From positions 16,998 through 80,997 of the forward strand of contig ASPA01000002.1 in NCBI GenBank assembly GCA_000405605.1: a DNA stretch of 64,000 bases, read 5' to 3'. The notes under the pieces are model-generated. The model was not told where the DNA came from and did no database searches. It saw only the letters and a list, made by a program, of their open reading frames with translations. This document shows, piece by piece, positions 31,682 through 32,265 of the stretch. The translations under genes and the position numbers were made by a program. Origin of the DNA: Atribacteria bacterium SCGC AAA255-G05. GTDB taxonomy: Bacteria; Atribacterota; Phoenicimicrobiia; Phoenicimicrobiales; Phoenicimicrobiaceae. How positions within the stretch are numbered: position 1 is the first letter of the stretch; every line of letters starts with the position of its first letter.

Positions 31682-32265
31682 TGTATGAAGGTAACAGAAG
31701 AGATCTTTTCTTTTCACCATAAAAGAAAAGGAGCCGAAGAGGTAAGATACCACAAACATCCAAACTTTCAGGCAAAAGGACCGTTACCGGACAGAACTCT
31801 GGAGAGCTTTATACCAAAAAGCACCGAAGGGGCAATTCCTGATCTTTAGGAAAACTTATACAAATTTTACTAAAAAGAAATATTTCAATTTTTTGGGAAG
31901 AATCTTTCAGGTAAAAGGACAGAGCAAGAATAGCAATATAACTATTTTTACTCTGTCCTTTTTTATTTTTACGATGAACAGTCTATGCAAATACTTAAAA
32001 GTTGATAAAGGTAAACTATTCCGAAAGAATAGGGCGCAAAGTTATGGATCAAAATATTGTTTATTCTCAGACAATATTATGACCTCCAGACTGCTGGGTT
32101 TTTTGTGTGAGTGAATAGAAAGTAAAACTTAGGGAGGTATTGGATTATAAAAAATTAAGAAACATGTATTTAATATAATAAACCAGGGAAAAATAAATAA
32201 AAGGAGGTGATATCTTTTCTTTTGTTGCAATAATCTAAAATTGCATTTAAATATTATTTTAAAAA
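31682..32265 (+). ncRNA. R2 conserved leader copy A, upstream of the lipoprotein operon. It contains an internal rho-independent terminator at ~31914-31970.
   Basis: About 400 nt are ~85-90% identical to 36182..36560 and 43822..44200. The element has the hairpin 'cttttcttttcaccataaaagaaaag' and the terminator 'aaaggacagag…ctctgtccttttttattttt'. Confidence 0.5.

Follow-up and report, generated by a model that had tools for sequence, protein, structure and literature searches.

Lipoprotein and secreted-protein genes lie behind every copy of a repeated leader, termed R2, in a 64,000-nucleotide stretch of contig ASPA01000002.1 from Atribacteria bacterium SCGC AAA255-G05 (hereafter the window). 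The three copies, A, B and C, are all on the forward strand. Copy A stands before two lipoprotein genes, copy B before a third, and copy C before an operon that opens with two more; IS21-type insertion sequence (IS) elements lie in the same region. A first-pass annotation had put R2 forward as a candidate novel cis-regulatory RNA. Our analysis makes it very probable that R2 belongs to the canonical tandem glycine riboswitches and is an ON switch on the plan of gcvT, with a class I aptamer (c-di-GMP-I) for cyclic dimeric guanosine monophosphate behind it in copy A.

Family membership and structure of the leader

The whole window was scanned against Rfam at gathering thresholds, which are 32 bits for the glycine riboswitch (RF00504) and 35 bits for c-di-GMP-I (RF01051). 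All three copies of the leader matched RF00504 as two adjacent aptamers, with each of the six aptamers scoring between 43 and 62 bits (Table 1). The threshold was also exceeded by both aptamers in 19 of 20 related loci tested, where the top score reached 66 bits. The conserved cores GGAGAG, CCGAAGG.GCAA and CUUUCAGG.AAAAGGAC are present in both aptamers, with two deviations, one in aptamer 1 of copy A and one in aptamer 2 of copy C; CUCAGG.AAAAGGAC, the third core string scored for RF00504 membership, is likewise present. The variant model glycine-GGAnGA (RF03166) remained below its gathering score of 110 bits in all three copies (A 81.2, B 65.0 and C 75.4 bits).

The first-pass annotation had described the leader as a candidate novel RNA that it could match to no family known to it, and had itself named a match to a known riboswitch as the result that would speak against this. 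The Rfam scan returned that match for six of six aptamers, and the description is abandoned. Its broader outline survives: R2 is a structured, riboswitch-type cis-regulatory leader that uses an intrinsic terminator as its expression platform. There is no conserved open reading frame (ORF) within it, and the ORFs 31893..32114 and 36249..36443 lie across structured RNA. Of the interval 31682-32060, originally treated as a single leader, the last 60 nucleotides (nt), 32000-32060, belong to the c-di-GMP-I element.

The two Rfam matches of copy A are separated by 3 nt and are bridged by a leader-linker helix, P0, in which CUG (31681-31683) pairs with CAG of the linker (31792-31794) between flanking GA-rich strands; the same helix is drawn by the RF03166 alignment. 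P1 of aptamer 1 is formed by GGUAACAG (31690-31697) and CCGUUACC (31781-31788). This is the helix GGTAAC/GTTACC for which covariation had been claimed, and one of its pairs does covary, being G-C in copy B and A-U in copy C, with an A.C mismatch there in copy A. The outermost P1 pair of copy B is A.C. P2 of aptamer 1 corresponds to the 5' hairpin in which a compensatory change had been noticed. In copy A it pairs UCUUUUCUUUU (31704-31714) with AAAAGAAAAGG (31721-31731), beginning with a G.U pair, and the change is a true compensatory one, from C-G to U-A at the second pair in copy C. The corresponding arms of copy B are CCUUUUCUUU and AAAGAAAAGG, which places the pairing register first given for that copy off by one base. 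An insert of approximately 50 nt enlarges P3b of aptamer 2.

Metagenome contigs were scanned with an invariant 22-mer from the linker (31786-31807), and at least 120 contigs matched. The leader is also present on contigs that encode lipoprotein homologs (L012, L016 and L017/L019). The alignment obtained from the scan comprised 104 distinct leaders, whose median pairwise identity was 83%; the counts that follow refer to this set unless another is given. Part of the 3' strand of aptamer 1 P1 falls within the 22-mer, as do the 3' strand of P0 and the 5' strand of aptamer 2 P1, and those positions are invariant in the sample; P0 is paired in 97% of the leaders, though covariation could not appear in it because its 3' strand lies inside the sequence used for collection. 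The 50-pair structure derived from Rfam was paired in 94.5% of cells, as against 38-55% when the 3' partners were slid. Double-sided changes were found at 16 pairs, compared with 7.2 +/- 1.8 in shuffled alignments, and none of 500 shuffles reached 16, so that the covariation first noticed among three copies is upheld with more homologs. Such changes occur in P1, P2 and P3 of aptamer 1. In P2 they affect 8 of 11 pairs, and the second pair, which differs between copies A and C, is CG in 39 leaders, UA in 30 and UG in 19.

Both aptamers retain at least 85% of their pairs in 85 of the 104 leaders, and in the remaining 19 one aptamer is disrupted or replaced. Since compensatory changes maintain the helices and most leaders retain both aptamers, we conclude that selection on the structure continues. 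Aptamer 1 is the better conserved of the two: its CCGAAG is retained in 102 leaders, whereas the matching position of aptamer 2 is A in 63 and C in 38 (CCGACGG, copy C included). A better-conserved aptamer 1 has been reported for leaders of glycine-cleavage (GCV) genes and linked to ON switches (Crum et al. 2019, PMC6944388).

Expression platform and second aptamer

The terminator of copy A begins approximately 232 nt into the leader, and its stem (31913-31962) has a predicted stability of -24 kcal/mol (z = -6.3); that of copy C is equally stable (-24 kcal/mol, z = -7.0). The strong terminator originally placed about 230 nt into the leader is borne out for A and C, and is weaker in B. Its 5' arm, AAAAGGACAGAG, doubles as the binding core and junction strand of aptamer 2 and, at 31920-31924, as the 3' strand of aptamer 2 P1. 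When 31681-31970 is folded without ligand, the minimum-free-energy structure (-72.1 kcal/mol, z = -4.0) contains aptamer 1 as drawn by Rfam and the terminator but no aptamer 2, so that termination appears to be the default state. The canonical 3' core of aptamer 2 is present in 78 of 104 related leaders, and in 78 of those 78 a hairpin (median -23.6 kcal/mol) and T-run follow directly. In keeping with a 5' leader, the longest downstream ORF lies on the leader strand in 95 of 101 cases.

These features suggest the following mechanism. Without glycine, AAAAGGACAGAG (31913-31924) would pair with CUCUGUCCUUUU (31951-31962), and transcription would end at the U-run after about 290 nt. Bound glycine would keep the AAAAGGACAGAG segment in the core and P1 of aptamer 2, so that the terminator would be blocked and RNA polymerase would continue. 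The layout would thus be that of a glycine-induced ON switch in which two aptamers share a single platform. Known transcriptional ON glycine switches, such as that of Bacillus subtilis gcvT, have this architecture. Glycine is the probable ligand and ON the probable polarity in vivo. The AT-rich box upstream of the leader is presumed to be its promoter region.

Like the gcvT riboswitch of B. subtilis (RF00504, transcriptional ON), R2 possesses two aptamers, one platform, a terminator whose 5' arm overlaps P1 of aptamer 2, and P0 with its kink-turn (K-turn). Unlike gcvT, which controls the glycine cleavage system, it stands before small lipoprotein genes; it also differs in the P3b insert and in its copy number, with three copies inside 12 kb and at least 120 related copies in metagenomes.

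In copy A, a c-di-GMP-I aptamer sits between the glycine terminator and the gene. It passes RF01051 and possesses the GAAA tetraloop hairpin and GCAAAG junction of its class (GEMM-I), but lacks a closing P1, and its receptor half is UC-AAA, compared with CUAAG in relatives. Intact aptamers of relatives score 58-67 bits, against 46.2 bits for copy A, and across eight aptamers compared their P1 covaries, AGCUG pairing with CAGCU or CGGCU. By its sequence the aptamer of copy A is degraded relative to these. Copies B and C retain only the first ~64 of ~99 positions. Compared with locus L016, which has the full aptamer, B lacks ~203 nt and C ~214 nt, the deleted stretch taking in the aptamer's 3' half together with its T-run and ~130 nt beyond. 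With the c-di-GMP sensor cut in half, B and C would be glycine-only leaders, and the window documents, in steps, how a leader with two inputs has naturally decayed to a single input. In copy A, a read-through transcript would next meet the c-di-GMP-I aptamer, the small hairpin and its U6, as if the lipoprotein operon had been built for two inputs.

The arrangement of a complete glycine riboswitch with its own platform, then c-di-GMP-I, before the same ORF is present formally in copy A and clearly in L016, L082 (twice), L087 and L096. A c-di-GMP aptamer at fixed spacing (210-219 nt after the 22-mer) is found in about 20 related leaders. Two relatives passed the variant model c-di-GMP-I-GGC (RF03167, threshold 59 bits), namely L017 at 3800-3887 (61.6 bits) and L089 at 4960-5057 (60.9 bits); no ligand characterisation of this variant was found in the literature searched. 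In L089 (4770-5057) and L130, aptamer 2 and the glycine terminator are deleted and aptamer 1 runs straight into the c-di-GMP aptamer, which in L089 starts 89 nt past the 22-mer compared with the usual ~215 nt. In copy A, the ~160 nt that separate the c-di-GMP element from the start codon (32105-32265) contain the segment TTAGGAGGTRTTRGMTTAYA..., which is conserved among relatives (L017 3890-4000), and a GGAGG resembling a Shine-Dalgarno sequence well upstream of the real start.

Six examples of glycine followed by c-di-GMP-I in one leader have been described and predicted to act as an AND gate (Sherlock et al. 2022, RNA Biol, PMC9481103). The present arrangement is like theirs in that a complete tandem glycine riboswitch and terminator precede c-di-GMP-I in the same 5' untranslated region, and in that genes for envelope or surface proteins lie downstream, their examples including the lipoprotein CsgG. 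It differs in its second aptamer, which is degraded in copy A and has lost half its length in B and C. An AND gate is one of several conceivable logics here, since in intact relatives the 3' strand of the c-di-GMP P1 runs straight into a U-run and c-di-GMP might turn expression either on or off. Because the target proteins in our case are not glycine-rich, the published glycine-demand rationale for curli does not apply. Neither the leader RNA, which belongs to a long-known class, nor its tandem arrangement with c-di-GMP-I is new.

Table 1 Coordinates of the leader copies, their structural elements and the genes behind them (positions in the window).
Feature	Position	Strand	Details
Terminator-like hairpin, GCCCUUUAGCAUUUCGCCGAAGGGC with T-run	31498..31528	+	Closes the upstream unit; part of the repeated upstream module; conserved in A, B and C
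AT-rich box, AAAAAGAAGGATTTTTAAATAGACTTGTAGTATAAAG	31551..31587	+	Shared by A, B and C and by about half of related leaders
P0 leader-linker helix, 5' strand	31681..31689	+	CUG and GA-rich K-turn side UAUGAA; pairs with 31789-31794 (GGACAG)
Copy A glycine aptamer 1	31685-31793	+	RF00504, 56.4 bits
Copy A aptamer 1 helices	P1 31690-31697/31781-31788; P2 31704-31714/31721-31731; P3 31733-31748/31758-31773	+	
Copy A glycine aptamer 2	31797-31924	+	RF00504, 45.5 bits
Copy A aptamer 2 helices	P1 31797-31801/31920-31924; P2 31807-31810/31818-31821; P3 31823-31832/31904-31912	+	
Copy A intrinsic terminator	31913..31970	+	5' arm AAAAGGACAGAG 31913-31924, 3' arm CUCUGUCCUUUU 31951-31962, then U-run
Copy A c-di-GMP-I aptamer	32000..32098	+	RF01051, 46.2 bits (gathering score 35)
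Copy A short terminator-like hairpin	32085..32104	+	UCCAG-ACUG-CUGGG and U6, 5 bp; terminator scan; overlaps 3' strand of c-di-GMP aptamer
Copy A first gene	32266..32748	+	Lipoprotein, 155-160 amino acids (aa), lipobox LLTGC; no Pfam family
Copy A second gene	32872..33390	+	Paralog of the 146-aa Ig-like lipoprotein family; 3' end replaced by IS21 insertion 33362-35649
Copy B tandem glycine riboswitch	36183..36470	+	Weakened terminator
Copy B aptamers 1 and 2	36187-36295; 36299-36427	+	RF00504, 61.8 and 46.5 bits
Copy B c-di-GMP-I, 5' half only	36501..36563	+	nhmmer match to profile positions 1-63; no Rfam match
Copy B gene	36746-37333		Lipoprotein with Lcl_C domain (Pfam)
Copy C tandem glycine riboswitch	43821..44112	+	Strong terminator
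Copy C aptamers 1 and 2	43825-43933; 43937-44066	+	RF00504, 62.1 and 43.0 bits
Copy C truncated c-di-GMP-I aptamer	44142..44205	+	23.8 bits (gathering score 35); P2 broken
Copy C operon, lipoprotein genes	44385-44825; 45033-45500		
Copy C operon, DUF3472 gene	45621-46421		
Copy C operon, last gene	46470-47189		

Genes and mobile elements around the leader

The first gene of copy A begins about 305-320 nt past the terminator, close to the ~300 nt first estimated, with ATG 32266 as one possible start and GTG 32281, preceded by GGAGG at 32268-32272, as the more likely one. The 146-aa lipoprotein family represented by its second gene has 264 homologs, nearly all of them from metagenome assemblies alone. 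Its predicted model is an Ig-like beta-sandwich with a predicted local distance difference test (pLDDT) score of 91.8, and a structure search with this model returned generic fold neighbours alone (ApaG/DUF525, TRAP-beta and CARDB, at template modelling scores of about 0.5), too general to point to a function.

Beyond the window, homology among copies of the leader is confined to a block of ~310 nt, from ~20 nt before P0 to the T-run of the terminator, with a sharp 3' end at the U-run; the upstream terminator and AT-rich box are common to about half of the copies. The first ORF behind this block differs almost every time. About 40 of 110 first ORFs encode lipoproteins, and the exported or surface types include Lcl_C (7), Flg_new (4), CarboxypepD_reg (4), SBP_bac_5 (3), Bmp (2) and DctP. 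Metallophosphoesterases (4), catalases (2), ATPases like OLD, Gabija or AbiL (2), Schlafen/AlbA_2 proteins (2) and GIY-YIG proteins (2) are also represented, together with a ResIII restriction subunit, a D12 methylase and, identified by eye, HigB-, MazG-, Fic- and KAP-like proteins. Both glycine aptamers scored above the Rfam threshold before 12 of 13 atypical genes checked, the KAP-like gene (L053) being preceded by a leader in which aptamer 1 alone scores and aptamer 2 is disrupted. Where a contig carries two leaders, leader-operon units follow one another (L082), as they do in the window. All 14 c-di-GMP leaders with a scorable first ORF, as well as copy A, precede lipoprotein or signal-peptide genes, three of them called by eye on lipoboxes that the heuristic had missed; among glycine-only leaders, about a third are followed by an exported-protein ORF.

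A DprA gene adjoining the L017 leader has named homologs at 85-91% identity from Atribacterota, and the GC content of the related loci (33.9 +/- 3.4%) is close to that of the window (34.1%). On the evidence of the DprA gene and of the shared leader and lipoprotein families, the leader lineage is probably Atribacterota. The KDG kinase of the window was less informative, its nearest named homologs being 55-58% identical and drawn from mixed phyla. A scan of species-representative genome contigs with a degenerate pattern (glycine core, 60-90-nt gap, c-di-GMP core) did not recover the lineage; it produced one match, in a metagenome-assembled genome of Kordiimonadaceae, which had no Rfam match and was taken as chance. 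The 22-mer had no match in viral contigs, which gave no sign of a phage origin.

These observations raise the possibility that the tandem glycine riboswitch is a portable cassette of one Atribacterota lineage, present in at least 120 copies before unrelated genes, with glycine as a global signal and a c-di-GMP module that is added only before exported-protein genes and has repeatedly been lost. We regard this proposal as evenly balanced between right and wrong. That the leader has moved as a cassette to unrelated Atribacterota genes is a plausible conjecture. New genes may instead have been inserted behind resident leaders, an alternative with a precedent in L012, where an IS110-family transposase gene (2442-3728) lies between an intact glycine leader (1901-2143) and a lipoprotein gene (4001); DNA can evidently enter behind these leaders. 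The copies may also be spread over many species and not concentrated in one genome. Many copies per lineage are also a feature of multi-copy riboswitch regulons, such as those of the T-box and of c-di-GMP-I in some Bacillota and Thermodesulfobacteriota. Those regulons are, however, functionally coherent, whereas here leaders of 83% median identity with a sharp 3' boundary stand before unrelated genes. The literature searched, with limited coverage, reported no expansion of glycine riboswitches, nor any riboswitch, in Atribacterota. If the wider pattern is real, it would be the first metabolite riboswitch known to us to have spread as a module in front of over 100 unrelated genes.

Other repeats and mobile elements accompany the leaders in the window. 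A module of ~200 nt is found upstream of leaders A and B (31391-31607 and 35931-36142) and twice without a riboswitch (37491-37686 and 47316-47400). It contains ...GTTCGAAAATCGTYCTGTCTGGCCGACCA, then TTTATAGATAGATGAATATTAGCCC...GGGCTTTTTT, which forms a hairpin with a T-run, and on its minus strand lies a short conserved ORF, which in the 37.5-kb copy reads MSEETEKLYQKLEELIGIC. The same module terminator occurs in L017 after a real tRNA gene ending in CCCCGACCA. A tRNA scan of the window found none, and the CCGACCA upstream of A and B, which resembles a tRNA 3' end, is not part of a tRNA; at a loose threshold, the module gave sub-threshold noise alone in Rfam. It could be the remnant of an attachment site or of a small mobile element.

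The IS21-type element that replaces the 3' end of the second lipoprotein gene of copy A lies on the minus strand and encodes istA, whose domains are rve and Mu-transposase C, as well as istB. A second IS21-type element, also with istA and istB (38716-40843, plus strand), splits an integrase gene into a helix-turn-helix part (37837-38409) and an rve_3 part (40850-41206). A group II intron domain was matched marginally at 27063-27141 on the plus strand (36.6 bits against 35); among relatives, matches lie on the minus strand in L025 (3145-3393 and 1437-1592) and L126 (969-1215), two loci being strong at 143 and 132 bits. A gene for an SBF/ACR3-type transporter (47485-48841, minus strand) consists of two overlapping ORFs of 247 and 194 aa that share a repeated stretch, which looks like a frameshift or a partial duplication.

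Weighing the readings

Several observations weigh against assignment of R2 as a working glycine riboswitch. The genes controlled in the window are unrelated to glycine metabolism, cleavage or transport, and among the 25 commonest of the 110 Pfam families found across 110 first ORFs there is no glycine-cleavage or alanine-symporter family. Glycine cleavage and transport are the usual contexts of glycine riboswitches (PMC6944388, PMC12452182); such neighbours (gcvT/H/P or Na+/alanine-type transporters) typify the family but do not define it. A demand for glycine in the controlled proteins was considered as an explanation and rejected, their glycine content being 6.8% against a background of 6.3% (p = 0.53). 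Each copy also departs from the consensus. In copy A, GAAGAG replaces the conserved GGAGAG of aptamer 1, as in 10 of 88 relatives, and an A.C mismatch occupies the seventh pair of P1 (31696/31782). In copy C, CCGACGG replaces CCGAAGG in aptamer 2 (43968; 31828 in copy A). The terminator of copy B is weak, at -15.2 kcal/mol (z = -2.6) with two G.U pairs. Furthermore, a consensus sigma-70 scan gave no plus-strand match upstream of the leader, and the strands that should close P1 of the c-di-GMP aptamer in copy A (5' AGUUG, 3' GCUGGG) cannot pair.

The A.C mismatch recurs in 38 of the 104 leaders, too often for random damage; it may be tolerated, or may form a protonated A+.C wobble. At the same pair, the other leaders have A-U (57), G-C (6) or G-U (3). 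No association was found across the alignment between this mismatch and the A/C polymorphism of aptamer 2.

Taken together, such departures could mean that the window copies are decaying relics, carried along with a repeated cassette and serving, free of ligand control, as no more than promoter, 5' untranslated region and leaky terminator. Decay is clear in the neighbouring c-di-GMP aptamers, the region is dense in IS elements, and one aptamer is disrupted or replaced in 19 of 104 relatives. The same deviations, including both GAAGAG and CCGACGG, nevertheless recur in many otherwise intact relatives; most of the relatives keep both aptamers with their helices maintained by compensatory changes, and the terminators of A and C are intact. 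We consider decay to relics unlikely.

The entirely atypical gene associations might alternatively reflect a glycine-riboswitch fold of changed specificity that senses another small molecule, which would explain the lipoprotein, defence and catalase targets. In other riboswitch classes, such shifts of gene context have marked variant specificities, and a normally conserved core position of aptamer 2 varies between A and C. Against this, the standard glycine model scores as high as 66 bits, 102 of 104 leaders retain the core of aptamer 1, and RF03166 reaches only 65-81 bits of the 110 required, so that a change of ligand seems distinctly improbable. Less credible again is the notion that the terminated ~290-nt transcript acts in trans as a small RNA. 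Terminated riboswitch transcripts do act in this way in Listeria, and a strong terminator ~300 nt before the gene and many near-identical copies would fit; but there is no evidence of a target, the layout is that of a standard riboswitch, and the element points to a downstream gene in 95 of 101 cases. The first-pass proposal of a new attenuator or riboswitch family, with an unknown ligand, has in its favour the failure to recognise the leader and a gene context atypical for any glycine riboswitch. It can hardly be maintained when the window holds six aptamers of 43-62 bits, the threshold being 32, when dozens more pass in relatives, and when the conserved cores are present.

Assignment of R2 to the tandem glycine riboswitches removes a false lead to a novel RNA and annotates three riboswitch-controlled operons. 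Three points of interest remain: gene associations that are atypical, a second sensor lost step by step inside one window, and a leader that seems to have spread as a cassette. Atribacterota abound in the subsurface and are very difficult to bring into culture. If the cassette proposal is correct, glycine would be a general physiological signal in Atribacterota; about 20 natural glycine and c-di-GMP tandem leaders, all tied to exported proteins, would be added to the six published, and the link to exported proteins would give a testable rule for the use of the second input.

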